This document shows, piece after piece, positions 2,579-47,421 of a stretch of DNA of 64,000 nt. This DNA comes from Escherichia phage ukendt. Where the stretch lies: the sequence record NC_052661.1. One strand, written 5' to 3'. The notes below the pieces were generated by a model, which was not told the origin of the DNA, did no database searches, and saw only the letters and a list, made by a program, of their open reading frames with translations. Each line of letters opens with the position of its first letter. Position 1 is the stretch's first letter. A program made the position numbers and the translations under genes.

Positions 2579-2623
2579 TATTAATCTCCTATGTTTAAGA
2601 AATGCCCCCGAAGGGGCAGTTTG

Positions 2624-3851: not shown

Positions 3852-4610
3852 TTAAATAAACACTTCAGTAATCAGTTTAGACAAACGTCCACGTTTATTA
3901 TCGTCCGTTGTCAGTTCAACATATCCAATAAAATCTACAATTGGCTCACGAACACCTTCTTCATTCTCTGGATATAAAAGTTCCAAAATTTGATGCAGAC
4001 CATTGCTACGTTTTTTAATTGCATATGTCTGGCGAACATCGCCTAATACAATAACATGCGTATTAATACCTGCACGTTCAATAAGAAGTTTAAGTGTTTC
4101 TGTTGACATAAGTTGTGCTTCGTCAATAATGACGATTGTATTATCCAGGGTAGCCCCCAACAAATAGTTAGGAATATTCAATTCGATCTTACCTGATCCA
4201 ATATCGTTTTCCAATTTGTTAGCTGTCATGAATTGCTGGAAAATACGTTTTGTAGATTCATAGTGTGCTGCTAGTTTATCTGTTTTATCCCCAGACAAGA
4301 AACCAATCTGGTCATCTCCGACTTCAGTAGGGTTCTTGATAAAAAGTAGTTTACGGAAGTCTCCTGAACGAAGCATCTGCAAAGCTTTCCATAAAGCAAC
4401 AGAGGTTTTACCAGTCCCTGCCGGAGCATTTACAACAGTCAGATCATTCCAAATCATGCTTTGAACAATCTTATTTTGGTCCCCTTCAGGCATAAATTCA
4501 TCTAAACGGTAATCGTCATTACCTACCGCTTTTGCTGCATAACGGCTTTCAATCTTTGCTGAATTAGCCAGTTTCTGCCGTTGTGTTTTAGCTGCGGTTT
4601 TATTTCCCAT
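3852..4610 (-). CDS. phoH: PhoH-like ATPase
   Basis: Walker A NAPAGTGKTSVAL and PhoH-like layout; start moved to internal ATG at 4610 (SD AAGGAG 8 nt upstream); the track's longer ORF to 4661 overlaps the lysozyme gene. Confidence 0.75.
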   Translation of the reverse strand: MGNKTAAKTQRQKLANSAKIESRYAAKAVGNDDYRLDEFMPEGDQNKIVQSMIWNDLTVVNAPAGTGKTSVALWKALQMLRSGDFRKLLFIKNPTEVGDDQIGFLSGDKTDKLAAHYESTKRIFQQFMTANKLENDIGSGKIELNIPNYLLGATLDNTIVIIDEAQLMSTETLKLLIERAGINTHVIVLGDVRQTYAIKKRSNGLHQILELLYPENEEGVREPIVDFIGYVELTTDDNKRGRLSKLITEVFI

Positions 4611-4628
4611 AGTAGCACTCCTTTTAGA

Positions 4629-4644
4629 AGGGGCCGAAGCCCCT
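4629..4644 (-). repeat. GC hairpin AGGGGC-UUCG-GCCCCU (UUCG tetraloop on transcript), copy 1
   Basis: identical 16-mer also at 10797..10812; lies between lysozyme stop and PhoH start. Confidence 0.6.
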
Positions 4645-4647
4645 TTA

Positions 4648-5148
4648 TTAGTTGTAAGCATCTAAAGTTCCAGAAGTCAGAACTTTAATTACTCGTTCAG
4701 CACGGTTTGGCGTCTGGCTATACCATCGGCTTTTACGCATGTTTTTACCTGCTTGAGTATAATATGCATTGCTGATTAAAGTCAAGCTATTTTTAAACCC
4801 TTCAGCACCTTTTAACCCCAACTGGAAAACCATGTTGATTATTCCCAATTTACGAGTATCACTCACCTTATCATAGATTGGTGATAAGATAGCACTGTTT
4901 TTTATGTCTCTCTTCACTTTTGCAACATCGTCAGCAAAGATTTGACGGGCTTCTTTTTCTGTGATAACTCCATTGGTCTTACGACCAAGGAGATTATCTA
5001 AGATTTGAATAGCCTTTGCTTTATCTTTTATTTTAGTCAGAAGGTGTCCTATGCCGACTGTCCAATAACCAAGATGATCTTGGTAAACAGTAAGCTTCAG
5101 TCCTTCATCGACTCGTAGCATATCAAACTCATCTACTACTTTAGCCAT
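4648..5148 (-). CDS. endolysin, T4 lysozyme family (GH24)
   Basis: MLRVDEGLKLTVYQDHLGYWTVGIGHLL...NMVFQLG...KSRWYSQTPNRAERV is collinear with T4 lysozyme ([28 protein letters not shown]...NMVFQMG...KSRWYNQTPNRAKRV). Confidence 0.85.
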   Translation of the reverse strand: MAKVVDEFDMLRVDEGLKLTVYQDHLGYWTVGIGHLLTKIKDKAKAIQILDNLLGRKTNGVITEKEARQIFADDVAKVKRDIKNSAILSPIYDKVSDTRKLGIINMVFQLGLKGAEGFKNSLTLISNAYYTQAGKNMRKSRWYSQTPNRAERVIKVLTSGTLDAYN

Positions 5149-5155
5149 TTACTTC

Positions 5156-5305
5156 CTATTCGTCGTCTCCTACTCCGTGATCCAACTCATTAAACAACAG
5201 ATGTTCTGGAGAAGTTTCACGTTTTGGTTTCGTTTTCTTTATGTTGGACTTCAGCTCATTTGCCAAAGCACGAGAAAAGATCTTACGTTTCTGTTTACTT
5301 TTCAT
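5156..5305 (-). CDS. small basic protein (49 aa)
   Basis: ORF below the track size cutoff; SD GGAG 8 nt before ATG; K/R-rich. Confidence 0.4.
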   Translation of the reverse strand: MKSKQKRKIFSRALANELKSNIKKTKPKRETSPEHLLFNELDHGVGDDE

Positions 5306-5310
5306 AATTG

Positions 5311-5571
5311 TTACTCCGCAATTTGAGCCATGAGATCACGCAGTTCGGTAAAACCGCCTACGTATGTTACCTCCCCGTTCACTTCAGACAGAATTTGTGG
5401 AAATGTGCGTGGAGGAACTCCGGTAAGATCAACAACTGTTTTAGTCATTGATTCTAAATCGTAGTCTTGGTCAAGACTTAAATATTCAAACTGTTTATTG
5501 CGCATGGTTAATAGTTGTTTTGACATTTCGCAAAATTGACAGTTAGGTTTACCAAAAATTACAAATTCCAT
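5311..5571 (-). CDS. glutaredoxin/NrdH-like redoxin
   Basis: N-terminal CxxC active site (GKPNCQFCE), 86 aa, adjacent to RNR genes. Confidence 0.65.
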   Translation of the reverse strand: MEFVIFGKPNCQFCEMSKQLLTMRNKQFEYLSLDQDYDLESMTKTVVDLTGVPPRTFPQILSEVNGEVTYVGGFTELRDLMAQIAE

Positions 5572-6413
5572 TACCTCTCCTTATTAAGTAATACTGCTAA
5601 AGACCGTTCAATACCTTTATTTAAATCTGATTTTGTAAGATAGTGACTGGTTACTAATTGTGACTTCACCGGACGTGCTGCTGGAGCATTATAGGTTGAA
5701 GCTGATACCGCCGATATCTTAACAGGTTCTGGCATCTGTGTCAAGATCTTTTCCGCAAACTCCGCCCAAGAAATAAGATGGCTTCCTGCAAAATGGTAAG
5801 TCTTAACAGACCTTGACCAACCTGTTTTTAATACTTCAAAAATAGCTTCTGCTAAATCTGGAGCATATGTTGGACAAGAGAACTGATCAGCAACAATAAT
5901 AAAATCACGTTGTCCATCATTATAGCGAGACAACATGGTTTTTAGAAAGTTATTTCCAAATTCGCTATATACCGAGGCTGTTCGAATAATATATGCATTT
6001 GGGTTAACTCCTCGCACCATTTTTTCACCAAGTTCTTTCGTATACCCATAATTGTTTATTGGGTTAGGTGTAGTATCTTCAAAAATAGGATGAGAATAAT
6101 TAAAAATATAGTCTGTAGAAATATGCACAAAATCAATTTTAAGTTTACTGCACACTGCTGCAATGTTTGCAGGGCCGTAGGCATTAACAGCCAAAGCAGT
6201 AGCAAAATCATGTTCTGCTTTATCTACAGCCGTATAAGCAGCGCAATTAATAACACCATCTACATAATCTTCAATAATAGCGTTGCGCACGGCTTCAAAA
6301 TTTGTAATATCTACACGTTCTTTAGGATAAATTAAAGATACGTTTGAAGGAGCCACTTTACGTAAAGCTTGTCCCAGTTGTCCATTACCACCCAATACCA
6401 GATATGTTAGCAT
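5571..6413 (-). CDS. rmlD: dTDP-4-dehydrorhamnose reductase (RmlD-like)
   Basis: Rossmann start [17 protein letters not shown], ~280 aa, last gene of rml operon. Confidence 0.75.
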   Translation of the reverse strand: MLTYLVLGGNGQLGQALRKVAPSNVSLIYPKERVDITNFEAVRNAIIEDYVDGVINCAAYTAVDKAEHDFATALAVNAYGPANIAAVCSKLKIDFVHISTDYIFNYSHPIFEDTTPNPINNYGYTKELGEKMVRGVNPNAYIIRTASVYSEFGNNFLKTMLSRYNDGQRDFIIVADQFSCPTYAPDLAEAIFEVLKTGWSRSVKTYHFAGSHLISWAEFAEKILTQMPEPVKISAVSASTYNAPAARPVKSQLVTSHYLTKSDLNKGIERSLAVLLNKER

Positions 6414-6973
6414 ACACCCTCACTACGTAGCTGTTGAAAAGACTTAGCCATTGCATCTTTTGTTGATAAGATAGGTTTAAAATCTTCGTCAAAAATCATA
6501 TCGAAGCCCCAATCAATCCCTATATCAGGATCATCCCAACGTAAACTTTGCTCGCTGGAAGGGTCGTATGGAGTTGTGCATTTGTATTCGAAGATAGCAT
6601 CCATACTCAAGACTATAAAGCCATGTGCCAAACCAGGTGGAAGCCAGAACTGTGTATGGTGTCGTGCACGAAGAACAACACCGTCCCAAGCACCGTAAGT
6701 TGGACTGTCTTTACGTAAGTCTACAGCGAAATCCAATACTTCACCACTTACACAACGAACAAGCTTGCCTTGTGGATTATTTGTTTGGAAGTGCATTCCT
6801 CGCAAAACACCGAAGTTTGATTTAGACATGTTATCTTGAACGAAAGTTTGTTTACCAATAATATCTTCGTATTTTTGTTCATTGTATGTTTCTAAAAAGA
6901 AACCACGATCATCTTTATAAACGTCTGGTTTGATAATTACCGCACCTTCGATTTTTGTTTTTTCTACTTTCAT
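6407..6973 (-). CDS. rmlC: dTDP-4-dehydrorhamnose 3,5-epimerase (RmlC-like cupin)
   Basis: [10 protein letters not shown]...GMHFQ...[11 protein letters not shown]...YGAWDGVVL epimerase signature; start set at internal ATG 6973 (SD GGAGAG; ATGA overlap with rmlA stop). Confidence 0.75.
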
Positions 6974-7848
6974 TTTCTCTCCGCTAATTTGAGTAGGTAT
7001 TGCCCGTACTCTGTTTTCTTCAGTGAGTTTCCATGGTACACCAAAGTCTCTAAAGAAATCCACCCTTTTTTGAAAGCAATTTCTTCCAGGCACGCAATCT
7101 TCAATCCTTGGCAGTTCTCAATAGTCTGCACGAATTGACCAGCTTCCATCAGACTGGCGTGTGTTCCTGTGTCAAGCCAAGTAAATCCTCGTCCGAGAAC
7201 TTCTACTTGTAACTTCCTGTCTTCGAGGTAGCTGCGATTGATATCTGTGATCTCCAGTTCTCCACGCGAGGAAGGGGTTACTTCTAGTGCGCGTTGAACA
7301 ACAGAATTATCATAGAAATACAAACCTGTGACAGCATAATCTGATTTAGGATTTTCAGGTTTCTCTTCAATAGAAATAGCTTGACGATTACTCCCAAATT
7401 CAACCACGCCGAATCGTTCAGGATCTTTCACCAAATACCCAAAGATACAAGCTCCGCCCCAAACATCTACCATCTCACTGGCATTAATCAGTAGTTTACC
7501 AAAGCTTTGTCCGAAGAATAGGTTGTCACCTAAAATAAGAGCAACAGAGTCTTCTCCGATAAAATCTTTACCGATGATGAAAGCCTCCGCAAGACCTCGT
7601 GGCTCGGATTGGATTGCGTAAGTGAGTTTTATCCCAAACATAGACCCATCTCCGAGAAGATACTTAAAGTCTTCCTGATCGCCTGGTGTGGTGATGATTA
7701 AGATATCTTTAATGTCAGCCAACATCAATACCGATAAAGGGTAGTAGATCATGGGTTTGTCATACACAGGGAGCAATTGCTTGCTCACACTGCGTGTTAC
7801 CGGATGAAGGCGGGTTCCACTTCCTCCCGCCAAAATAATACCTTTCAT
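6970..7848 (-). CDS. rmlA: glucose-1-phosphate thymidylyltransferase (RmlA)
   Basis: [18 protein letters not shown] nucleotidyltransferase signature, 292 aa. Confidence 0.85.
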
Positions 7849-7856
7849 AACCCTCC

Positions 7857-8849
7857 TTAAATCTTCTCACTCCACCATTGAGGGTTGTTTAAGTACCATT
7901 CAATCGTTGAGTAGAGATCTTGTTCAAATGTAGAGTTTGCACTCCAACCCAGTTCAGACTCTATTTTAGAAGGATTGATTTCATAACGCAAGTCATGTCC
8001 TTTACGATCTTCAACAAAAGTTATCAAGTTGGAAGAAGGGTAGGTTCCTGCTTCTGGATGTACAGCATCCATGTAGTCACAAACCATATAGATGATCTCC
8101 ATATTGGTTTTGGGATTACGTGTTCCAATATTATACGTTTGACCTGGTTCTCCACCTGTTGCCACTTGAAGAATAGCTCGCGCATGATCCTCCACAAAAA
8201 GCCAGTCTCGCACCTGATCGCCTTTACCATACACTGGAATCTTTTTATTCGTCAAGATACTTGTGATGATTTTTGGGATCAGCTTTTCTGGATGTTGATA
8301 AGGTCCAAAGTTATTGGAGCAGTTGGTTATCACAACAGGTAAGTCGTAGGTACGGTGCCAAGCTTTCACAAGATGGTCAGATGCTGCCTTAGACGCACTG
8401 TACGGGCTTGAAGGGGCATAAGCTGTCTCTTCGGTAAAAGGAACGCCAGAGTCTGCCATATCGCCGTACACTTCGTCTGTGGAGACGTGTACGAACATCT
8501 TCAGTTTATTCTTTGGGAGGAGCCTTGCAGCTTCCAATAAATTGTATGTACCAATAATATTGGAGTCGATGAAAGCTCGTGGATTCTTGATAGAATTATC
8601 CACATGACTCTCTGCCGCTAAGTGAATGATGAAATCGGGATTGCACTCTACTACTAAACTTTTGACCTGGGCTTCGTTTGCCAAATCTGTTATACTTAGT
8701 TTAGCGTGAGTGATATCGCCTACATTCTTAATGTCTGCTGCATAGCTCATCTTATCAACGACAAAAACTTCGTTATTGGGATCTTGACAAAGAGAGCGCA
8801 CCACGGCGCTCCCAATAAAACCAAGACCACCTGTTACCAGATAGCGCAT
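7857..8849 (-). CDS. rmlB: dTDP-glucose 4,6-dehydratase (RmlB)
   Basis: [21 protein letters not shown]-binding motif, SDR YxxxK (YSASKAAS), 330 aa. Confidence 0.85.
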
Positions 8850-8858
8850 ACGTTCTCC

Positions 8859-9185
8859 TTACCAGACGTTTTGTGATACTAACGTTTCAGTTTCAATATT
8901 ATACTTATTAAGTAGTTCAAAATAGACCTCATTTGCTTTTTTATTTAAGCTTGTGAGGTCTATGGCACAAGCACCACAACCGCTACACAGCTTGATACCG
9001 AAGACACAATCTTCAGGATCTGCATCATACCACGGGGAAATGTTTTCCAAGCCCAAACCTTCGCAGAGAAACCAATTAAAGTCCCCATCGAACTGGTCTT
9101 CGACTTGTGGATCGTCTCCAAATATTTCTTTCCATTTATCATATGGTGCACCCTGTAACATACGCCATTCGATATCAATACCCAT
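8859..9185 (-). CDS. hypothetical Cys-rich protein (108 aa)
   Basis: ORF; CSGCGAC cluster. Confidence 0.45.
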   Translation of the reverse strand: MGIDIEWRMLQGAPYDKWKEIFGDDPQVEDQFDGDFNWFLCEGLGLENISPWYDADPEDCVFGIKLCSGCGACAIDLTSLNKKANEVYFELLNKYNIETETLVSQNVW

Positions 9186-9339
9186 TTTTCATCTCCTCCT
9201 CTTCTTGAGCAGCTTTAATAATTGCTTCATAAATATCGTAAGCAATGCCTCCACAACATCTAGCTTCGAAAGCTATTGCTTCTGCAATGTGATCTGTTAA
9301 TTCTCGTGGAATGCGAACATACTCTTTTTCACTCTCCAT
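9175..9339 (-). CDS. small hypothetical protein (54 aa)
   Basis: hand-translated ORF MESEKEYVRIPRELTDH...; overlaps neighbours; below track cutoff. Confidence 0.3.
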   Translation of the reverse strand: MESEKEYVRIPRELTDHIAEAIAFEARCCGGIAYDIYEAIIKAAQEEEEMKNGY

Positions 9340-9481
9340 CTTCTACCTCCAACCCTTCTTTTTCAAAGATTACTACTCGTCCTTCACCATGACAATTCAG
9401 GCAAGGAAATGTTACCATAATCTCCACTTCCATTTGTCCAGTCCCACCACACACAGGACAAAAAATAAGTTTTTCAGCCAT
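9329..9481 (-). CDS. small zinc-ribbon protein (50 aa)
   Basis: hand-translated MAEKLIFCPVCGGTG...FPCLNCHGEG (CxxC...CxxC); TAATG overlap with upstream stop. Confidence 0.4.
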   Translation of the reverse strand: MAEKLIFCPVCGGTGQMEVEIMVTFPCLNCHGEGRVVIFEKEGLEVEDGE

Positions 9482-9690
9482 TATTCCTCCTTAATTATTT
9501 CAAACTTGGCAACACCATTTACAATAATATGACCACAAGACATAACTCCTAACCAAGGATCGCCGTTTTTCTTCAGGCGTTTACCGAATACATCACAAAA
9601 ACCATTCTTCATTTCGGAGGCTTCATAAGAAGCCCCTTTGTCAAAAACGTCTTTGAATGTGTCGATTATACCAACACATCTCAGAATCAT
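9481..9690 (-). CDS. hypothetical protein (69 aa)
   Basis: ORF directly downstream of nrdB. Confidence 0.45.
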   Translation of the reverse strand: MILRCVGIIDTFKDVFDKGASYEASEMKNGFCDVFGKRLKKNGDPWLGVMSCGHIIVNGVAKFEIIKEE

Positions 9691-10775
9691 TAGAAGTCAA
9701 GCTCCTCATCATCAGAAAGATCTTTGTTAGCTGAATTCAACTTGTAATTAGTTAACTGAATCTCTTGGGCTGCTGACTGAATCAAATCAGGATTCAACCA
9801 TTTTTCCATCCAAGCTAAAGGACTATGTTTAGGTGCTTTAAACTTGGCTTTCATTTTCAATCGACGATAAATAGGAGCAGCATTGAAATAAACCCACTGT
9901 TTAGACAATTCGGCGTTAAGACCTACAATAAAACGACCTTCACTAAACAGGTAGTCACACCACTGTTCCTCTTGTTCAACAACAGTGTCGAGGATCAAAG
10001 TCAACTCTTCAATATTGTCTTCGTAAATTTTACGCCAAATTGGGTCATGCATCAATGCATCAATTACAGCATAATCCATCTTAACATGCAAGATTTCATC
10101 TAGCATAATTTTCTGGATCAGTTTACAAGCCCCAACAAACAGTTGTTGTTCTGCCATAGCAAAAGTAGCAGAGAAGGAAGATATGAACTGAATACCTTCT
10201 AATCCAATCAGGGCTACCATCCCTTTAAGAATCAGCAATCGAAGTTCATCGTTAGCTTCAATCAATCCTAGAGCATACTTATGACCAGCTTCTTCCAACT
10301 GACCCATGATATCAGCAATGATACCCATACGATTGAAAATTTTATCATTAATCATAATCTGATTGATGACTTCAATTGGATCTGGAGTACATTGACGGAT
10401 TATTTCAGAATATGTTAACGCATGGAGAACTTCCATTTCACTCTGCTTCATCATCATAGCACAGGCTTCATTGTTACTCAAGAATGGAGAGAACAAAGTG
10501 ATGATTGATTTTGCAAGAGAATCATTTTCCCATTGGAACGATAAGTTTTTAATCATAACATCATAGTTGTTTTTAGAACAAGCTACGAAATCTTTACGTG
10601 TCTGATCCAGATTGACTTCATTCTCATCCCAATCTTGTGCTTTTTGAAGTTTGTAGAGTTTATGCATTTCTGGATAAGTTACGTTAACAGAATCAAAAAT
10701 CCCTAATTGTTCTCCTAAAAATACTGGATATTTTCCTGTTTTGTAAACTTCATTGTGTAAATTAATTGCTGCCAT
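9690..10775 (-). CDS. nrdB: ribonucleotide reductase class Ia small subunit
   Basis: 361 aa, immediately downstream of nrdA; typical size and helical composition. Confidence 0.85.
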   Translation of the reverse strand: MAAINLHNEVYKTGKYPVFLGEQLGIFDSVNVTYPEMHKLYKLQKAQDWDENEVNLDQTRKDFVACSKNNYDVMIKNLSFQWENDSLAKSIITLFSPFLSNNEACAMMMKQSEMEVLHALTYSEIIRQCTPDPIEVINQIMINDKIFNRMGIIADIMGQLEEAGHKYALGLIEANDELRLLILKGMVALIGLEGIQFISSFSATFAMAEQQLFVGACKLIQKIMLDEILHVKMDYAVIDALMHDPIWRKIYEDNIEELTLILDTVVEQEEQWCDYLFSEGRFIVGLNAELSKQWVYFNAAPIYRRLKMKAKFKAPKHSPLAWMEKWLNPDLIQSAAQEIQLTNYKLNSANKDLSDDEELDF

Positions 10776-10792
10776 TTAAAATTCTCCTCAAT

Positions 10793-10812
10793 AAAAAGGG
10801 GCCGAAGCCCCT
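10793..10812 (-). terminator. intrinsic terminator/attenuator between nrdA and nrdB (hairpin copy 2)
   Basis: minus-strand RNA AGGGGC-UUCG-GCCCCU followed by UUUUUA, then SD and nrdB ATG. Confidence 0.5.
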
Positions 10813-10819
10813 AGTTTCA

Positions 10820-13060
10820 TCACATCTTGCAAGCTTCACAACCACCATCAGAATCTTCTTGTGCTAAAGAATCTGCTGATTTTGTTCTACTATTAAGGTA
10901 ATACAATGACTTACCACCCAGTCTAGCAAAGTTCAAAATAAATTTCATCTCTTCTTTAACTGATAAACGTCCCCCTACCAATTTAGAATAATCTAACCAA
11001 GAATCACAAGAAATTCCTTGGTCCGTAAACTTGGTAAAGATACCATACATTTCTGCAAGATCTTTAGCCGGAGTATCCCAGGCGGACTGGTAAAACATTT
11101 TCAGTTTTTCATAGTCTGGAACAATAAATAATACACTACCTTTCTGACTTTGTTTATACATAATAGTATCACGAACAGGATACAGAGAGTTAGTAGTATT
11201 GCTTACCAAACTGCTGGACTCATTAGGTGCAATAGCAGCCAAGACACTGTTACGGATACCACCTTGTTCAATGATTTCAGCACGTAAGCCTTCCCAGTCC
11301 ATTTTAAGATCAAAATTACCGATACTGTCTACTGTTTTAGCATAAGTGTCAATTGGTAGCCAACCTTGAGGCCATTTGGTTTTATCGATCCATTCCGCAT
11401 TGCCTTTTTCCTTAGCCAGACGCAGAGAGGCTTTTGCCAACCAAAAGTAATGACGTTCTGCAAGTTCATGCATTAATTTTTTAGCATAAGCATCTGAATA
11501 ATTTACAAAATTACTTGCCAAGTAATGCGCTAAGTTTGTAATGCCTACACCAATAGATCTACGTGCTTTAGCAGTTATTTCGTTATGTTTAAATGGATAA
11601 TCCATTGTTTCAATAACGTTGTCAATTGTCAATACAGTGTAGTATGCAACATCCTCATATTCTTCAGGTAAGACACGACCAGCAACAATAGAAGATAAGA
11701 AGCATAAAGCCAATTCTTGATCTTCTGTATTCTCACCAGTAAAGAGATCCGGCATACTGTGGAAAGCTTTAGTTGGTAAGAAGATCTCTTGACACAGGTT
11801 TGATTGATACACCGTATCCAGGAAAGGTGTATGGTTGTTAACGTTGTCAGCAAAGAACATGTAAATACGTCCTGTTTCTGCACGTTGAACAATAATCTCT
11901 GTCAGAAGATCACGAGCCTTAACAAATTTTTTCTTAATGCGACGACGGCTTACTTTGTCATAAACTGCATCAAACTCTTCTTCACTTTTATACAAAGCTT
12001 CATAAAGTTCAGGAGCATCATCACAACTAACTAACATCCAGTCTTCGTTTTTTGCTGCTCGACGCAAGAACGAACGGTTAACAACAATAGAATAATCTAG
12101 TTTGTCTACTCGTTTATCTATAGGTGTTGTTGGATTCTTCAGTCGAATCAGATCGTCGAAGTCTGGTTCAAGTATGGTAAAGGTAACTGTAGCACTACCT
12201 CCACGGCTTGCTTGCTTCGAAGCTCCAACACTATCTTCCATCCATTTCAGATACGGAAGAAGACCACCATGAATAATACGATTATTCTTAACACCTTGAC
12301 CTGTGGCACGAGTTTGAAGATTAACACCAATACCTGCGTTATTCAACGTATACTCATGAGCTAAGTAATTAGCAATGGCTAAAGATTCTGCCGTATCGTC
12401 TGCACGGAATAAACAACAAGACGCACTTCCTTTGATTGGAGTTCGTAGAGTTGTCAGATACGGCGATGGCAGATTAATCTTAAGATCGCTAACATAAGTA
12501 TAAAGTTTTTTAATATCTTCTATACGGCGTTCTTTTGGTTGGATCTCCATAACCTTCATTGCGATACCAATGAAAAGAAACTGTGGAGACTCATGCACCA
12601 CATCGTTTACTGCATCTCGAATAAGATATTTATCTACCATCTGACGTAAAACAGAATAACCATAAGTTAGATTTTTATTATGCTTTACAATCTTACCGAT
12701 TTCTTTGATCTCTTCATCAGTATAATCCATTTTAGCCCAATGTCCACGTTCTACCATATCATGATAAAAGGTATTCAGTGAAGGGATACTGTGGTATCCC
12801 CCATGAGCCTGTTTGTAAATCATACCCAGAAGAAGCCTTCCTGCCATATCACTGTAAGCTTGTGTTTTCTTGTCAATACACGCTGCAATCATTGCTTTAT
12901 GCAGATCACGTGTAGACACACCGTCATAACACCGCTTCACAGCTTCTAATTCAATTTCAGACCAGTTTAGTTTACCTGCTGCAAATTCAGACCACTTGCG
13001 AAGTTTTTCTGGATTAAACTCCTCTGTCTTACCGTTAGATTTAGTTACAAAACGAATCAA
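10820..13060 (-). CDS. nrdA: ribonucleotide reductase class Ia large subunit
   Basis: 746 aa; N-terminal ATP-cone-like region; active-site SNLCQEI (NxCxE); C-terminal Cys pair CEACKM. Confidence 0.9.
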   Translation of the reverse strand: MIRFVTKSNGKTEEFNPEKLRKWSEFAAGKLNWSEIELEAVKRCYDGVSTRDLHKAMIAACIDKKTQAYSDMAGRLLLGMIYKQAHGGYHSIPSLNTFYHDMVERGHWAKMDYTDEEIKEIGKIVKHNKNLTYGYSVLRQMVDKYLIRDAVNDVVHESPQFLFIGIAMKVMEIQPKERRIEDIKKLYTYVSDLKINLPSPYLTTLRTPIKGSASCCLFRADDTAESLAIANYLAHEYTLNNAGIGVNLQTRATGQGVKNNRIIHGGLLPYLKWMEDSVGASKQASRGGSATVTFTILEPDFDDLIRLKNPTTPIDKRVDKLDYSIVVNRSFLRRAAKNEDWMLVSCDDAPELYEALYKSEEEFDAVYDKVSRRRIKKKFVKARDLLTEIIVQRAETGRIYMFFADNVNNHTPFLDTVYQSNLCQEIFLPTKAFHSMPDLFTGENTEDQELALCFLSSIVAGRVLPEEYEDVAYYTVLTIDNVIETMDYPFKHNEITAKARRSIGVGITNLAHYLASNFVNYSDAYAKKLMHELAERHYFWLAKASLRLAKEKGNAEWIDKTKWPQGWLPIDTYAKTVDSIGNFDLKMDWEGLRAEIIEQGGIRNSVLAAIAPNESSSLVSNTTNSLYPVRDTIMYKQSQKGSVLFIVPDYEKLKMFYQSAWDTPAKDLAEMYGIFTKFTDQGISCDSWLDYSKLVGGRLSVKEEMKFILNFARLGGKSLYYLNSRTKSADSLAQEDSDGGCEACKM

Positions 13061-16881: not shown

Positions 16882-16910
16882 AGTATACACTAATATAAAA
16901 TTTTTGTCAA
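16882..16910 (-). promoter_or_regulatory. sigma70-like promoter TTGACA-N17-TATACT (minus strand)
   Basis: read on reverse complement: aTTGACAaaaattttatattagtgTATACT. Confidence 0.45.
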
Positions 16911-16911
16911 T

Positions 16912-16934
16912 AAAAAAGGGAGCAATAAGCTCCC
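16912..16934 (-). terminator. intrinsic terminator (minus strand)
   Basis: hairpin GGGAGC-aataa-GCTCCC followed by U6 on minus-strand transcript. Confidence 0.55.
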
Positions 16935-16940
16935 TGATTA

Positions 16941-23232: not shown

Positions 23233-23637
23233 TTATTGAAGTTTAAGTGAACCACGAAGACGTTTCTCTTGCTGATCACGGATATATTGTGGAACCTCGT
23301 GAATTGAATCATTACCGTGCCTATTTTCAACAACTAAAGAGATAACTTGATAACCAAACTCTTCAGCAAGAGCTAGATAAGGTTTAAGTTCTTTCTCTGT
23401 GGTTGAAGTATTAGAAACAATAATCTTGTTAAGATTAGATGCCATAGCATCACGAACAATACCCTGACACCATGCGTGTGCTTTACCTACATTTTCTGGC
23501 TTCCAATCGTAAACACCACTCTCTGTGTAATGATATTGATCTGCCTCACAGATAGGCCAATAACCTTCAGAAATAATTTCTGCTACTGTAGATTTACCAG
23601 CACCTGAAACGCCACGTAAAATGATAAGTTGTTTCAT
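23233..23637 (-). CDS. polynucleotide 5'-kinase (Pnk-type P-loop kinase domain)
   Basis: P-loop GVSGAGKST; KIIVSNTSTTEKE parallels T4 Pnkp kinase VIISDTNLNPERR; TAATG overlap with ligase stop. Confidence 0.65.
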   Translation of the reverse strand: MKQLIILRGVSGAGKSTVAEIISEGYWPICEADQYHYTESGVYDWKPENVGKAHAWCQGIVRDAMASNLNKIIVSNTSTTEKELKPYLALAEEFGYQVISLVVENRHGNDSIHEVPQYIRDQQEKRLRGSLKLQ

Positions 23638-29751: not shown

Positions 29752-29826
29752 GGCCCTGTAGCTCAATGGGAGAGCTGTCGGCTCATAACCGATAGGTAGC
29801 TGGATCGAAACCAGCCAGGGCCACCA
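29752..29826 (+). tRNA. tRNA-Met/Ile2 (anticodon CAT)
   Basis: manual cloverleaf: acceptor GGCCCTG/CAGGGCC, D-stem GCTC/GAGC, anticodon loop CTCATAA, encoded CCA; acceptor resembles tRNA-Ile2. Confidence 0.75.
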
Positions 29827-29828
29827 AC

Positions 29829-29903
29829 GTCTTTATGGTGTAATGGATAGCACAGGAGTCTTCTAAACTCTTAGTCAAGGTTCGATTCCTTGTAAAGACA
29901 CCA
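29829..29903 (+). tRNA. tRNA-Arg (anticodon TCT)
   Basis: acceptor GTCTTTA/TAAAGAC, anticodon loop CTTCTAA, T-arm CAAGG-TTCGATT-CCTTG, CCA. Confidence 0.75.
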
Positions 29904-30099
29904 GAACATTTTAACATGAATTAGCTCAAGTGATTTGAACCCACTACTGATCATGGTGGCAGAGAATGAGGTAAGTATGTCAGACATTATAAACAAAGGC
30001 CACGGTTATATTAGAAGACATAAATGCTCGAAGAGCACCGTTCGCTGAGAACGGGGGTTGGTGGAGTCACCATTCATGGTAAAATGTTTTAAAAAACTA

Positions 30100-30128
30100 T
30101 TGACAACTAACACTATTTTATGTTAGAT
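30100..30128 (+). promoter_or_regulatory. promoter TTGACA-N18-TAGATT with extended TG
   Basis: ctaTTGACAactaacactattttatgtTAGATT; upstream of the tRNA-Ser genes. Confidence 0.45.
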
Positions 30129-30137
30129 TATAAGCAT

Positions 30138-30228
30138 GGAAGGGCAAATCGACGTGGCGACGAAAACGGTCTTGAAAACCGCCGAGCTTGAAAGAGCCTT
30201 GGGAGTTCGACTCTCCCTCCTTCCGCCA
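30138..30228 (+). tRNA. tRNA-Ser (anticodon TGA), class II
   Basis: anticodon arm ACGGT-CTTGAAA-ACCGC and long variable arm as in E. coli tRNA-Ser(UGA); 3' end TCCTTCC-G-CCA; D-region irregular. Confidence 0.6.
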
Positions 30229-30232
30229 GATT

Positions 30233-30318
30233 GGTAGATTGGTGAAATGGTAGCCACGACAGTTTGCTAAACTGTAGTCGGAAACGGCGTGTAGGTTCGA
30301 GTCCTACATCTACCGCCA
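30233..30318 (+). tRNA. tRNA-Ser (anticodon GCT), class II
   Basis: acceptor GGTAGAT/ATCTACC, anticodon arm ACAGT-TTGCTAA-ACTGT, long variable arm, G73, CCA. Confidence 0.75.
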
Positions 30319-30448
30319 AGTTCTTTTTAATGTAGCTTACTTTAGCAGAGTAAATCTTCGGCAAGTGGCGGTAACCACTTTACCGATACCTCATAGTTAG
30401 TGGTGTGAACACTGGCTATTTTAAAAAGAATTTAAATATTAGTATTTA

Positions 30449-30536
30449 GGTGAGTTAATTCCGTAGGGGTAGCGGGGCAGACTGTAAATCTGTTATCATT
30501 GCGATTCGGGTGGTTCGACTCCATCACTCACCACCA
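30449..30536 (+). tRNA. tRNA-Tyr (anticodon GTA), class II
   Basis: acceptor GGTGAGT/ACTCACC, anticodon arm GCAGA-CTGTAAA-TCTGT (as E. coli tRNA-Tyr), long variable arm, A73, CCA. Confidence 0.7.
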
Positions 30537-30542
30537 AATTAA

Positions 30543-30628
30543 GATGAGTTGGCTGAATGGTTTAAGCGGCGGACTGTTAATCCGTGTTCGAAAGAACAAT
30601 ATAGGTTCGAATCCTATACTCATCGCCA
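30543..30628 (+). tRNA. class-II (Ser-type) tRNA with anticodon GTT (Asn codons)
   Basis: acceptor GATGAGT/ACTCATC, 3-bp D-stem GCT/AGC, anticodon arm GCGGA-CTGTTAA-TCCGT, 15-nt variable hairpin GTTC-GAAA-GAAC, T-arm ATAGG-TTCGAAT-CCTAT, G73, CCA. Confidence 0.6.
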
Positions 30629-30635
30629 GAATTAT

Positions 30636-30712
30636 GGACTTGTAGAGTTAAGGTAAACCCCCAGTCGCCAATAGGCTTCTGGAATTGCAGGTATCGAATC
30701 CTGCCGAGTCCC
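30636..30712 (+). pseudogene. degenerate tRNA-like element
   Basis: acceptor-like GGACTTG/CGAGTCC and T-arm-like GCAGG-TATCGAAT-CCTGC, but no canonical anticodon arm and no CCA. Confidence 0.25.
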
Positions 30713-30718
30713 AGCATT

Positions 30719-30793
30719 GCTCCTATAGTATAATGGCTATTACAACGGTTTTGTAATCCGTGGATCTCTGTTCGATTCAGTGTGGGAGCACCA
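30719..30793 (+). tRNA. tRNA-Thr (anticodon TGT)
   Basis: acceptor GCTCCTA/TGGGAGC, anticodon loop TTTGTAA, T-loop TTCGATT, CCA; T.T mismatches in anticodon and T stems. Confidence 0.5.
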
Positions 30794-31065
30794 ACACAAC
30801 ATTAAGAGCACTGTGATTGATCGTCGTATCCTGTGCACAAGGTCTGCTCGAAAGACAGTGTTCTTAGTATTGTGTTGATCACAAAAAGAGTCACCCGAAA
30901 CTTGACCGGAGTAGGGTTGGATGGGGCAAAATGAGAAGCGGCTCTCCCATCGACAGCAACGAAGAATAATATTTGACTTTGGTTTTGTATTATTTAAGTT
31001 AGCTTACCGAACGTAGGGCTAGTCACCCAACGGGATACTCGTCACTGTCCCAATCAATAAAAGTC

Positions 31066-31095
31066 TTGACAACAAATAGTAAAATGTAGTATAGT
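31066..31095 (+). promoter_or_regulatory. promoter TTGACA-N18-TATAGT
   Basis: cTTGACAacaaatagtaaaatgtagTATAGT, ~12 nt before tRNA-Gly. Confidence 0.45.
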
Positions 31096-31106
31096 AAAGA
31101 TATAGG

Positions 31107-31180
31107 GCGTTCTTGGTGTAGCGGTAGCATTCCGTCCTTCCAAGTCGGCGGCACGAGTTCGATCCTCGTAGAACGCTCCA
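31107..31180 (+). tRNA. tRNA-Gly (anticodon TCC)
   Basis: acceptor GCGTTCT/AGAACGC, anticodon loop CTTCCAA, T-arm ACGAG-TTCGATC-CTCGT, CCA. Confidence 0.6.
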
Positions 31181-31277
31181 AATTATTTAATAAAGGGTTG
31201 CCAGAAAACTTTCTCTTTTACTCATGGTTTTCTCCTTCTCTCACACTTCTTCTGGTTGCCCTTCATTAAATGATTTT

Positions 31278-31353
31278 TGGTTTGTAGTGTAGTCCGGTAG
31301 CACACGACACTTTGACTGTCGTAGGTTTGGTTCAAATCCAGACAGACCAGCCA
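31278..31353 (+). tRNA. tRNA-Gln (anticodon TTG)
   Basis: U1-A72 acceptor TGGTTTG/CAGACCA (as in E. coli tRNA-Gln), anticodon arm CGACA-CTTTGAC-TGTCG, G73, CCA. Confidence 0.7.
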
Positions 31354-31358
31354 TATAA

Positions 31359-31435
31359 CGGAATTTAGCTCAGTTTGGTAGAGTGTACGCTTTGGGAGCG
31401 TATTGTCGCAGGTTCGAATCCTGCAATTCCGACCA
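31359..31435 (+). tRNA. tRNA-Pro (anticodon TGG)
   Basis: acceptor CGGAATT/AATTCCG, D-arm TAGCTCAGTTTGGTAGAG, anticodon arm TACGC-TTTGGGA-GCGTA, T-arm GCAGG-TTCGAAT-CCTGC, CCA. Confidence 0.8.
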
Positions 31436-31441
31436 ATTAAA

Positions 31442-31515
31442 TGTTTCGTAGTTCAATGGTAGAACCCACGACTGATAATCGTGAGACACAAGTTCGATTC
31501 TTGTCGAAACAACCA
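31442..31515 (+). tRNA. tRNA-Ile (anticodon GAT)
   Basis: acceptor TGTTTCG/CGAAACA, anticodon arm CACGA-CTGATAA-TCGTG, T-arm ACAAG-TTCGATT-CTTGT, CCA. Confidence 0.75.
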
Positions 31516-31517
31516 GT

Positions 31518-31587
31518 TTCCCGTTAGACTTACAGGATAAGAGTTCCACAGCTTATTGTGATGCTGGTTCGAATCCAGCACGGGATA
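31518..31587 (+). pseudogene. degenerate tRNA-like element
   Basis: good T-arm GCTGG-TTCGAAT-CCAGC and D-arm-like region, but short aberrant anticodon arm, 1-72 mismatch and no CCA. Confidence 0.25.
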
Positions 31588-31593
31588 CATAAT

Positions 31594-31672
31594 AGCGGGA
31601 TAGAGGAGTCTGGTCGTCCTCGCCAGTTTCATATGCTGGAGATCATTGGTTCAAATCCGATTCCCGCCTCCA
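31594..31672 (+). tRNA. tRNA-Met (anticodon CAT), 1-72 mismatched
   Basis: acceptor AGCGGGA/TCCCGCC (A1.C72), D-stem GAGG/CCTC, anticodon arm CCAGT-TTCATAT-GCTGG, T-loop TTCAAAT, CCA. Confidence 0.6.
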
Positions 31673-44025: not shown

Positions 44026-44071
44026 TACGGCGGGGGTTAAGCCCCCGTTATCAAAATAAAGAGGATCTATA

Positions 44072-45365: not shown

Positions 45366-47354
45366 TTGTTAGAAATTAACGCCTCCAGAATTAGTAACGT
45401 GGTTACGTTTAAGGTGGACAAGAACAGTCTCAAGGAAGCAAAAGATGCCGTGTTGAGTGTTCAGAAGTTTGCAAATAAAATGCAACCCACTATGAACATG
45501 ACCAAGTTTAGACAACAAATGAAAGAGATTGAACGTGAACTTAAGAAAGCTCAAACTCAAAGCCAAAAACCTATGCGAGCACCTACTCCCGCTGGAGCGG
45601 GTGCTCCTGTAGGTGGTTCTGGTAGACCTAGAACTCCTAAAACCCCACAAGGTAGAGAAGAAGAAAAAGCTCGTAAAGCGGCTGAACGCGAAGCTAAAGC
45701 AGCAGCACGTAGGGAAGACTTAGGTAATCTTCGTTTACAGAACTTTAACTATCGAGCAAGAGCATTTAGTAAAGCCAGTCCTGGAGCTATGCAAGAAGCT
45801 AGAGACGTTATGGGTAAAGCTGTAGAGCAATACAAAAAAGGTGAAATAACTCTTCAACGTATGAACCAAGCTCTTGCTCACCAGTTAGATGCTTTACGCA
45901 GATCTCATCGTGAAAAGAATGCTGAAATAGAAGATGAGGTTCGCGGTCGTCGCCGTATTCGTAGAGAGCTAGAAGCAGAAGCTAAAATGCGTATACGTAT
46001 GCGAAATCGTGAACTTAGGGATATAGAACGAAATCGTAAGCGTGAATTGGCACAACAAAAACGTGATCGTGATCGTAGATATGGACAACTAAAAGAAGGT
46101 GCAGCAGGTCTTAATCCACGCATGATTGCATCCTCTTTGATTGGTGCTGGGCTGTTTGCAGGTGGTTCTGTAGTTGGTAACACGTTGATGAATACTAACG
46201 AAAGAATTAAACTTGTAAGCCGTGGTGCTGAAAACGTTCAGACAAACGCCAACGCTATTTTGGCAATGACAGCTTGGGGTGAACAGAACGGTGTAGACTC
46301 TGCAAATATTATTAAATCAATAGATAATATTAAAGACGTTCGTGAACGTCTTGGTAATACAGTTTTAGCTGCAAAGTGGAATGAGAAAGAAGGGAAGTGG
46401 AAAGGCGGTGATAATGGCATAACTGACATTATGAACTTGTTTGGATGGAATCCAGAACAGCTTAAACCTTTACAGAACGATCCTTTAGCTTTTATTCAGG
46501 CTACTGTTAATGAAGGTGAGCGTCGAGGTATGAACTCTGCTCAAATAGGGCGACTTCTTGAAAACCTTGGTGATGACCTTATGCACTACCAACGTATGTT
46601 TAGTAAAAACGGCGAAGGGTATAATGAAGTATTGAAAATGCTTCAAAGAACAGGTGCAACATTAACTCAAGAACAAATAGATGCTTCTAAAGAGTTTACT
46701 CGTTTTGCTGCAACAGTTCAGCTTGTAGGTCAAGGTATGCAGAACCACTTCTTAGAGGGTTTTGTGAAAGCCTTACCTAAAGATGATTCTTGGTTGGATA
46801 ACGTTAAAGTGCTAGATCAGTTTGCCAAAGATTTAGGTGAAGAACTCGGTAAGACAACAGTTCAATTAGGAGGTTTTGCTAAAGAATTGGGAGATGGTTT
46901 CGGATCTTTTACCAATTGGCTTAAAGAAACATTCCCAGATACATTCGGAGACAACACAGATCCTAATAAATCTATGGCACAAAAAGCATACGAGGCAACG
47001 CAAAGTGGAGACAGCAATCCTGTAGCAGATTGGTTGTACAATTTAACAGGTATTGATACACAAGACATTGGTCGTATGTGGAGAGGAGAACAAACAAGGA
47101 CACGTGCTTTTGGATTTGGTAATCCTCTTGAAGATTTACGTGAATCAGCCTACACACCTAACGTAAGTTTGGCTCGTAATCAACCTGTTGTTGAGAATAC
47201 GGTAGCAATACCAAGTGATCTTATCAAAGTTACGATCAGCCCTTCTTCAGAGTTTGGAAATATTCTTGATGCAAGAATTCAAAATAGCGGAAATAGCATT
47301 TTCCAACGTTTGTCTCTTTCAACTCTAAGTGGACAATCTAACACTGGTGGTTAA
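45366..47354 (+). CDS. tail tape measure protein
   Basis: 662 aa, TTG start; highly charged helical region (RRRIRRELEAEAKMRIRMRNRELRDIERNRKRELAQQKRDRDRR), Gly-rich segments; position after chaperones. Confidence 0.65.
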   Translation: MLEINASRISNVVTFKVDKNSLKEAKDAVLSVQKFANKMQPTMNMTKFRQQMKEIERELKKAQTQSQKPMRAPTPAGAGAPVGGSGRPRTPKTPQGREEEKARKAAEREAKAAARREDLGNLRLQNFNYRARAFSKASPGAMQEARDVMGKAVEQYKKGEITLQRMNQALAHQLDALRRSHREKNAEIEDEVRGRRRIRRELEAEAKMRIRMRNRELRDIERNRKRELAQQKRDRDRRYGQLKEGAAGLNPRMIASSLIGAGLFAGGSVVGNTLMNTNERIKLVSRGAENVQTNANAILAMTAWGEQNGVDSANIIKSIDNIKDVRERLGNTVLAAKWNEKEGKWKGGDNGITDIMNLFGWNPEQLKPLQNDPLAFIQATVNEGERRGMNSAQIGRLLENLGDDLMHYQRMFSKNGEGYNEVLKMLQRTGATLTQEQIDASKEFTRFAATVQLVGQGMQNHFLEGFVKALPKDDSWLDNVKVLDQFAKDLGEELGKTTVQLGGFAKELGDGFGSFTNWLKETFPDTFGDNTDPNKSMAQKAYEATQSGDSNPVADWLYNLTGIDTQDIGRMWRGEQTRTRAFGFGNPLEDLRESAYTPNVSLARNQPVVENTVAIPSDLIKVTISPSSEFGNILDARIQNSGNSIFQRLSLSTLSGQSNTGG

Positions 47355-47361
47355 TAAAATA

Positions 47362-47383
47362 CCTCGCTTCGGCGGGGTTTTTT
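47362..47383 (+). terminator. intrinsic terminator after tape measure gene
   Basis: CCTCGC-ttcg-GCGGGG (UUCG tetraloop) followed by TTTTTT. Confidence 0.7.
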
Positions 47384-47391
47384 CGTTTCCC

Positions 47392-47421
47392 TTGACACGA
47401 AGTTTCTATATGTGTTACAAT
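47392..47421 (+). promoter_or_regulatory. promoter TTGACA-N18-TACAAT
   Basis: cTTGACAcgaagtttctatatgtgtTACAAT before baseplate genes. Confidence 0.5.

Follow-up and report, generated by a model that had tools for sequence, protein, structure and literature searches.

The 64,000-nt stretch of Escherichia phage ukendt analysed here (NC_052661.1; hereafter the window) carries one and the same 16-mer, AGGGGCCGAAGCCCCT, at two gene junctions, the first between genes for a lysozyme and a PhoH-like protein (positions 4629-4644) and the second between nrdA and nrdB (10797-10812), which raises the question of what this repeat is. The window belongs to a Phapecoctavirus, a phAPEC8-like Escherichia coli myovirus with a genome of about 150 kb, and an earlier note on the same DNA had proposed that the repeat might be a reused terminator or RNA-stability module. 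We consider it probable (roughly 0.8) that the two copies are ordinary intercistronic RNA hairpins of the intrinsic-terminator class, capped by C(UUCG)G, of which the nrdA/nrdB copy would act as a leaky terminator and the lysozyme/PhoH copy as a protective hairpin, and that their identity is convergent.

Both copies are exact, as first reported, and are the sole matches in the window even when up to two mismatches are allowed, against 0.01 matches expected from shuffles of the window. The lysozyme, PhoH-like, NrdA and NrdB proteins, identified from the annotation of phage vB_EcoM-Ro121c4YLVW (RefSeq NC_052654; hereafter the relative genome, complete at 151.7 kb and 98.2% identical across the compared 8-kb stretch 4000-12000), are all encoded on the minus strand. 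In minus-strand mRNA both copies read AGGGGC-UUCG-GCCCCU, following the lysozyme and nrdA stop codons respectively; they lie on the transcribed strand, 2-7 nt past the stops and 4-7 nt ahead of the next Shine-Dalgarno sequence. Homology between them ends at 17 nt, and their flanks are unrelated. A genome-wide scan returned three exact copies in the relative genome, the third lying outside the window, after a Sir2-like gene and ahead of the one that follows it. That the two copies in the window are identical is more than chance would give in random sequence, yet unsurprising for a hairpin class of about five G-C pairs and a fixed loop.

The GC stems with UUCG caps described earlier for the minus strand are present directly past the stop codons. 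In both copies the UUCG stands on the sense strand and is closed by a C:G pair, as in the extra-stable C(UUCG)G tetraloops, and the stem of 6-7 bp with five G-C pairs and a 4-nt loop lies within the range of intrinsic terminators (5-14 bp, GC-rich, with a loop of 3-8 nt). Both hairpins appear in the minimum-energy folds of their 81-86-nt contexts; free energies (dG) predicted by ViennaRNA are listed in the table. An Rfam scan of the whole window returned transfer RNAs (tRNAs) only, with no curated family matching the hairpins. Two other element classes were considered and rejected: a mobile palindrome resembling repetitive extragenic palindromic (REP) sequences or miniature inverted-repeat transposable elements, given identity ending at 17 nt, unrelated flanks, two copies in the window and three in the genome; and an RNase III processing site, whose double-stranded RNA should span some 20 bp or more, against 6-7 bp here.

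At the nrdA/nrdB junction the minus strand reads AUG UGA UGA AACU AGGGGCUUCGGCCCCU UUUUAUU GAGGAG AAUUUUAA AUG. The hairpin begins 7 nt past the nrdA stop (TGA 10822-10820), directly after which stands a second in-frame TGA, and it is followed, as the earlier note had described, by a run of five U (extended to U5AUU) and then by the nrdB ribosome-binding site. Its d-score, a classical hairpin and T-tract discriminant computed with modern energy parameters, is +19 to +27 (nT 3.8-4.3), to be read against approximate thresholds. The discriminant is reportedly that of d'Aubenton Carafa and colleagues from 1990. This copy has full intrinsic-terminator anatomy, and termination at it is predicted. 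Only 21 nt, made up of the U-tract, GAGGAG and an 8-nt spacer, separate the hairpin from the nrdB ATG, too short a distance to accommodate a promoter. From nrdB to lysozyme the genes follow one another on one strand with tiny gaps, and the interval between the two hairpins yielded no strong promoter-like site, only sites with 9-10 of 12 matches at about background frequency. With neither space for a promoter nor a strong internal one, nrdB and the packed genes downstream would, to judge from this anatomy, need readthrough, and the terminator would therefore have to be leaky. The look of an intra-operon attenuator, remarked on previously, is thus borne out by a putative terminator and a 21-nt gap that would force readthrough. 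No stable competing fold of the leader type that uses the hairpin arms was found in the 81-86-nt contexts, so that any attenuation would proceed by ribosome shielding rather than by RNA switching.

The same junction is polymorphic among relatives. Most Stephanstirmvirinae have an open reading frame (ORF) of 109-112 amino acids between the hairpin and nrdB, which has no Pfam match and matches only PHROG 17458 (function unknown); phi92 has an HNH endonuclease gene in place of that ORF, with the hairpin after the HNH gene; and neither is present at the junction in the window, in the relative genome or in one rV5-like phage. In the window, the junction UUGAGGAG-AAUUUUAAAUG has the look of two ribosome-binding sites fused together, that of the extra ORF and that of nrdB.

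At the lysozyme/PhoH junction the minus strand reads AAC TAA TAA AGGGGCUUCGGCCCCUU CUAAAAGGAG UGCUACU AUG. The tail is CUAAAAGGAG, or UUCUAAAA if counted from the G-C core, and because it holds no U-tract the d-score is negative (-12 to -42). The terminator reading of the earlier note is accordingly retained for the nrdA/nrdB copy but not for this one, which has the stem-loop of an intrinsic terminator and lacks its U-tract; rather than a canonical terminator, it is more likely an RNA-stability or weak-termination hairpin. Orthologues at this site have d-scores from +15 (Justusliebigvirus, tail UUUUAUAA) to about -2 to -4 (tail UUAUUAAG, -2). The PhoH N-terminus MGNK... is conserved, and the annotations of four relatives begin the protein there. 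The PhoH-like ORF annotated as gp219 in NC_052654, which runs from the ATG equivalent to window position 4661 through the hairpin and overlaps lysozyme, is likely over-extended, the real start being at 4610; with that start, the first hairpin copy is intergenic and not coding. The relative genome also holds an AAGGGGC/GCCCCUU stem after the DNA polymerase gene (23292-23309 of that record), with a UUCU loop and no U-tract.

Conservation among relatives is informative as to what may be under selection. The lysozyme/PhoH stem AAGGGGC/GCCCCUU is identical and 100% paired in seven lineages, the most distant of which show about 70% PhoH protein and about 73% DNA identity, while its loop takes one of several tetraloop forms (see table). 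In phiWec186, the nearest divergent Phapecoctavirus, all four loop positions (within window 4634-4639) differ from the window, with only two changes in about 50 flanking nucleotides, a pattern that could come either from several bases being replaced at once or from quick alternation between stable tetraloop classes. At the nrdA site, four of the five other hairpin variants from other lineages retain a U-rich tail; the tail is weak in the rV5-like phage Gotham. Exchange of stable tetraloop classes on a fixed stem is as predicted by selection for a stable RNA hairpin, and points to selection acting on the stability of the putative RNA hairpin rather than on the letters UUCG. Orthologous sites have already been annotated as terminators, in phage Paula at lysozyme/PhoH and, by ARNold, in phage Gotham at nrdA/nrdB.

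The two copies are members of a wider set. In a census of GC-rich tetraloop hairpins in the window, TTCG was the commonest loop, with four instances, each bearing UUCG on the strand of the neighbouring genes; they include the tape-measure terminator on the plus strand, which was correctly said to have a UUCG loop and is followed by six U. The relative genome holds 12 GC-rich UUCG hairpins, three of them the exact 16-mer, and in all 12 it is UUCG, not CGAA, that stands on the coding strand of the flanking genes, and all 12 hairpins start 2-17 nt past an annotated stop. By simple arithmetic the probability of 12 of 12 under random orientation is about 0.0002, which argues for a role at the RNA level. 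In a filtered list of 26 tetraloop hairpins after stops in that genome, UUCG is the commonest loop with 10, and six have GNRA loops. The stems of the 12 are GGGGC (three), CCCGC (three), then GCCCC, CCUCGC and others, and AACCCGC-UUCG-GCGGGUU occurs exactly three times, so that the hairpins appear to form a family defined by design rather than by common sequence. Tandem in-frame stops precede three UUCG hairpins in the window: TAATAA at 4645-4650 (minus strand), TGATGA at 10817-10822 (minus) and TAATAA at 47352-47357 (plus).

Table. Hairpins and associated signals at the two junctions and elsewhere in the window, with the loops seen at orthologous sites of other phages (window coordinates; sequences as mRNA unless DNA is meant)
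Feature	Coordinates	Strand	Remarks
Hairpin copy 1, AAGGGGC-UUCG-GCCCCUU	4628-4645	-	Overlaps the second of the tandem lysozyme TAA stops; no U-tract; dG -12.1 kcal/mol (18-mer)
PhoH Shine-Dalgarno and likely true start	4608-4623	-	AAGGAG 4623-4618; ATG 4610-4608
Hairpin copy 2, AGGGGC-UUCG-GCCCCU	10797-10812	-	Exact match; minimum-energy fold; dG -11.2 kcal/mol (16-mer)
U-rich tail, UUUUAUU	10790-10796	-	With the paired U at 10797 gives U5AUU; candidate terminator U-tract
nrdB Shine-Dalgarno and start	10773-10789	-	GAGGAG 10789-10784; 8-nt spacer; ATG 10775-10773
UUCG hairpin, UGCCCC-UUCG-GGGGCA	2603-2618	-	Then UUUCUU; 5 nt past the stop of an HslV-like peptidase gene, ahead of GGAG of the next gene
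Tape-measure terminator, ACCUCGC-UUCG-GCGGGGU	47361-47384	+	Hairpin 47361-47378, then UUUUUU; 6 nt past TAATAA; d-score +18
Post-stop hairpin, CUCG loop	1168-1191	-	Then UUUU and a ribosome-binding site; loop is UUCG at the matching site of the 98% relative
Lysozyme/PhoH hairpin loop			UUCG in the window clade; GCAA in phiWec186; GUAA in Klebsiella phages and IMG/VR relatives; GAAA in Justusliebigvirus
Post-nrdA hairpin, GGGGC-UUCG-GCCCC			Window, phiWec186 and one IMG/VR relative
Post-nrdA hairpin, phAPEC8			UUCA loop
Post-nrdA hairpin, Klebsiella-type phages			GAAA loop
Post-nrdA hairpin, Justusliebigvirus			G5-CUUUGU-C5
Post-nrdA hairpin, rV5-like Vequintavirus (Gotham)			GGGGC-UUCG-GCCCC; tail only AUUUUAG; d-score -16

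Other hairpins in the window differ in their surroundings. One at 16935-16917 on the minus strand, with U5 and a d-score of +25, directly abuts TTGACA-17 nt-TATACT (an 11/12 match; region 16882-16935), and downstream of the tape-measure hairpin stands a promoter-like site made up of TTGACA (47392-47397), 18 nt and TACAAT (47416-47421), with a TGT just ahead. These terminator-promoter pairs, at 16882-16935 (minus) and 47361-47421 (plus), have the appearance of genuine boundaries between transcription units, which the nrdA/nrdB site does not. Strong GC-rich hairpins without a U-tract are also found 3-8 nt past stops at 44029-44049 (plus) and 20236-20218 (minus), with dG of -13 to -15; they are further non-terminator post-stop hairpins that resemble the lysozyme/PhoH copy.

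Occurrences of the 16-mer in other genomes bear directly on whether its two copies share an origin. The exact sequence was found in at least 120 viral stretches (IMG/VR contigs) and at least 120 bacterial genome stretches, across many phyla and in phages unrelated to the window. As a few hundred matches would be expected by chance in 596 Gb (by our own arithmetic), the raw number is uninformative, and only the T-tract context was used. Among the matches listed, at least five of the 8 nt that follow on the strand carrying UUCG are T in 77 of 125 viral and 75 of 120 bacterial instances (about 62%), against about 4% expected by chance from a binomial estimate; a T-tract solely in the opposite orientation was seen in seven viral and four bacterial matches. 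The 16-mer would thus be a generic terminator hairpin reached independently by many genomes, and not a phage-specific module. The two copies in the window would be identical because about five G-C pairs and a fixed tetraloop allow very few sequences, and not because a module was copied.

Under the proposed explanation, the hairpins would act on transcripts of the host RNA polymerase. At nrdA/nrdB the 6-bp UUCG stem would fold in the nascent RNA and U5AUU would let part of the polymerases release, giving leaky Rho-independent termination. As the hairpin stands only 7 nt past the nrdA stop, a ribosome ending nrdA would cover its 5' arm, and termination would be suppressed. Readthrough would suffice to express nrdB together with the dozen or so closely spaced genes downstream, and transcripts terminated or trimmed at the site would end in a very stable 3' hairpin, which should resist 3'-exonucleases. 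The lysozyme/PhoH copy would cause little termination, and may instead protect 3' ends or insulate folding between cistrons.

Several points weigh against this explanation. The function suggested for the lysozyme/PhoH copy is its weakest part. In the alignment of that site, 49 of 49 stem cells pair and none is compensatory, so that the invariant stem gives no covariation proof of pairing. Folding z-scores of the whole 81-86-nt contexts against shuffles are unremarkable (-0.77 and -0.85), although the 16-nt hairpin is too small a part of each context for them to count either way, and the d-score formula was combined with modern energy parameters, so that its thresholds are approximate. Full-text searches aimed at transcriptome or terminator work on Phapecoctavirus and phAPEC8 yielded no 3'-end or expression data, the matching papers that were read giving predicted terminators only. 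Finally, less nrdB than nrdA mRNA is not obviously of use for an alpha2-beta2 enzyme.

Some of the evidence would also be at home if both copies served solely as RNA-stability or processing elements, either by blocking 3'-to-5' exonucleases or by capping the 5' ends of processed downstream mRNAs, with no meaningful termination at either site. The missing U-tract at lysozyme/PhoH, the similar U-tract-less hairpins at 44029-44049 and 20236-20218, the readthrough required for nrdB, and the poor termination expected so near stop codons (PMC4824070) would all suit such elements. Against this, the U-rich tail at the nrdA site is kept in most variants despite changing loops and flanks, for which only termination would select, the nrdA/nrdB d-score is clearly positive, and T-tracts adjoin 62% of the listed matches to the same 16-mer elsewhere; an exclusively stabilizing role is therefore unlikely. 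A bolder version of the leaky-terminator idea, in which the UUCG hairpins lying 2-17 nt past stops would be coordinated, ribosome-gated terminators that tie downstream transcription to upstream translation, and whose loops are homogenized or swapped by short-patch gene conversion among terminator hairpins (as the complete loop change at lysozyme/PhoH might exemplify), seems to us improbable. The view that the identical hairpins are simply copies, spread or homogenized by short-patch gene conversion or template switching as a mobile or concerted-evolution module, draws on the three exact 16-18-mers in the full genome together with the three exact AACCCGC-UUCG-GCGGGUU hairpins, on UUCG being the more widespread state at the nrdA site, and on the phiWec186 comparison, since a multi-nucleotide replacement could yield four loop changes beside so few flanking ones. 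Selection for alternative stable tetraloops accounts for loop switching equally well, however, and homology does not extend past the A/U-extended stem, the loops differ between the two sites in relatives, and the same sequence has arisen elsewhere, in bacteria and phages that are unrelated. For these reasons we regard copying as distinctly improbable, and of the reused module put forward in the earlier note the kind of hairpin stands, but reuse by copying is not supported.

Strict conservation of the GGGGC/GCCCC stem at two sites across genera, and the reliance of downstream genes on readthrough, could also be explained if the hairpins were recognized by an RNA-binding or antitermination factor of phage or host origin, by which readthrough would be actively regulated in infection. 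Yet the loop, which is the usual recognition surface, is not conserved, UUCG loops are said to bind no proteins (PMC4371310), the other UUCG hairpins of the genome have different stems, and the folds contain no alternative antiterminator structure; we think such a factor very improbable. It is harder still to credit that the 16-mers serve as direct repeats at the ends of a cassette, marking or bringing about the movement of the 6.2-kb block that runs from nrdB through the dTDP-sugar and glutaredoxin genes to lysozyme. Identical direct repeats do flank this compact same-strand block, but 16 bp of generic terminator sequence recur in a third copy elsewhere in the genome, and no genome lacking exactly that interval was found among 130 matching records in a search that was not exhaustive. 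The block is moreover present and collinear in essentially all relatives, in which the two hairpins are non-identical in their loops, and on these two grounds the mobile cassette was rejected.

Convergent intercistronic hairpins, the explanation we favour, have close counterparts in known systems. The original account of C(UUCG)G hairpins, in phage T4 mRNA, is said to be that of Tuerk and colleagues in 1988. The hairpins described here share with those of T4 the UUCG loop, C:G closure and short GC stem, an intercistronic position on the mRNA strand of a large virulent coliphage and unusual stability, whereas they belong to Stephanstirmvirinae and not Tevenvirinae, have GNRA loops at orthologous sites of relatives, and are known from sequence alone. 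They likewise resemble REP sequences and bacterial interspersed mosaic elements, which are repeated GC-rich intergenic palindromes on polycistronic mRNAs and can protect upstream RNA. REP units are about 35-40 nt long, conserved beyond the stem and present in many copies, whereas identity here extends over 16-18 nt only and the stems vary among family members. With canonical E. coli and phage intrinsic terminators, the nrdA/nrdB copy, the tape-measure hairpin and the hairpin at 16935-16917 share a GC stem, a 4-nt loop, a 3' U-tract, a position past a stop and a positive d-score, and the same 16-mer with a T-tract is widespread in bacteria. The hairpins depart from such terminators in the lysozyme/PhoH copy, with its missing U-tract, and in the nrdA/nrdB copy, which lies inside an operon-like string 21 nt from the next start and would thus be no full stop.

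Hairpins with UUCG loops are known from T4 mRNA, and when closed by a C:G pair they show extraordinary stability (PMC4371310); terminator hairpins increase the abundance of upstream transcripts (PMC11696848). In E. coli, the lambda terminator tR2 is almost fully repressed when placed a few bp past a stop, as the terminating ribosome blocks hairpin folding, and its efficiency climbs with distance from the stop to about 0.9 by about 30 bp (PMC4824070). The stop-hairpin distances of all twelve hairpins in the relative genome lie within the repressed or partly active range of tR2, although the tR2 series consists of engineered reporter measurements and the phage values are distances read from genome sequence. 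Annotation of a Phapecoctavirus lists 55 predicted terminators in 151.7 kb (PMC10612097), and 20 Rho-independent terminators were predicted in the rV5 genome (PMC3606486).

Two further features lie apart from the junctions. Outside the window, at 124.7-134.4 kb of NC_052654, another hairpin is repeated, with the core GCGGCA-AUGG-UGCCGC in eight of eight copies and the full GGCGGCA/UGCCGCC stem in five of the eight; most copies have a shared motif close to TTTACCACGTAG upstream and are sited in gaps between very small genes, and the set resembles the promoter-associated stem-loop cassettes of T4-type early regions. Within the window, a cluster of 10-11 tRNA genes (Met, Arg, Ser, Asn, Thr, Gly, Gln, Pro, Ile, Met; 29752-31672, plus strand) separates the early and metabolic block on the minus strand from the structural genes on the plus strand.

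The element is already known in kind, as a standard bacterial terminator and mRNA-protecting hairpin, and the value of these results lies mainly in annotation: they mark likely transcript ends and partial stops in Phapecoctavirus, a group of therapeutic candidates, and correct the start of PhoH. The orthologous sites also offer a clean natural example of UUCG and GNRA tetraloop classes interchanging on an unchanged stem. If it is true that the nrdA/nrdB hairpin sets the ratio of nrdA to downstream mRNA, then these phages would employ a simple form of ribosome-gated attenuation, by a mechanism that is documented elsewhere.

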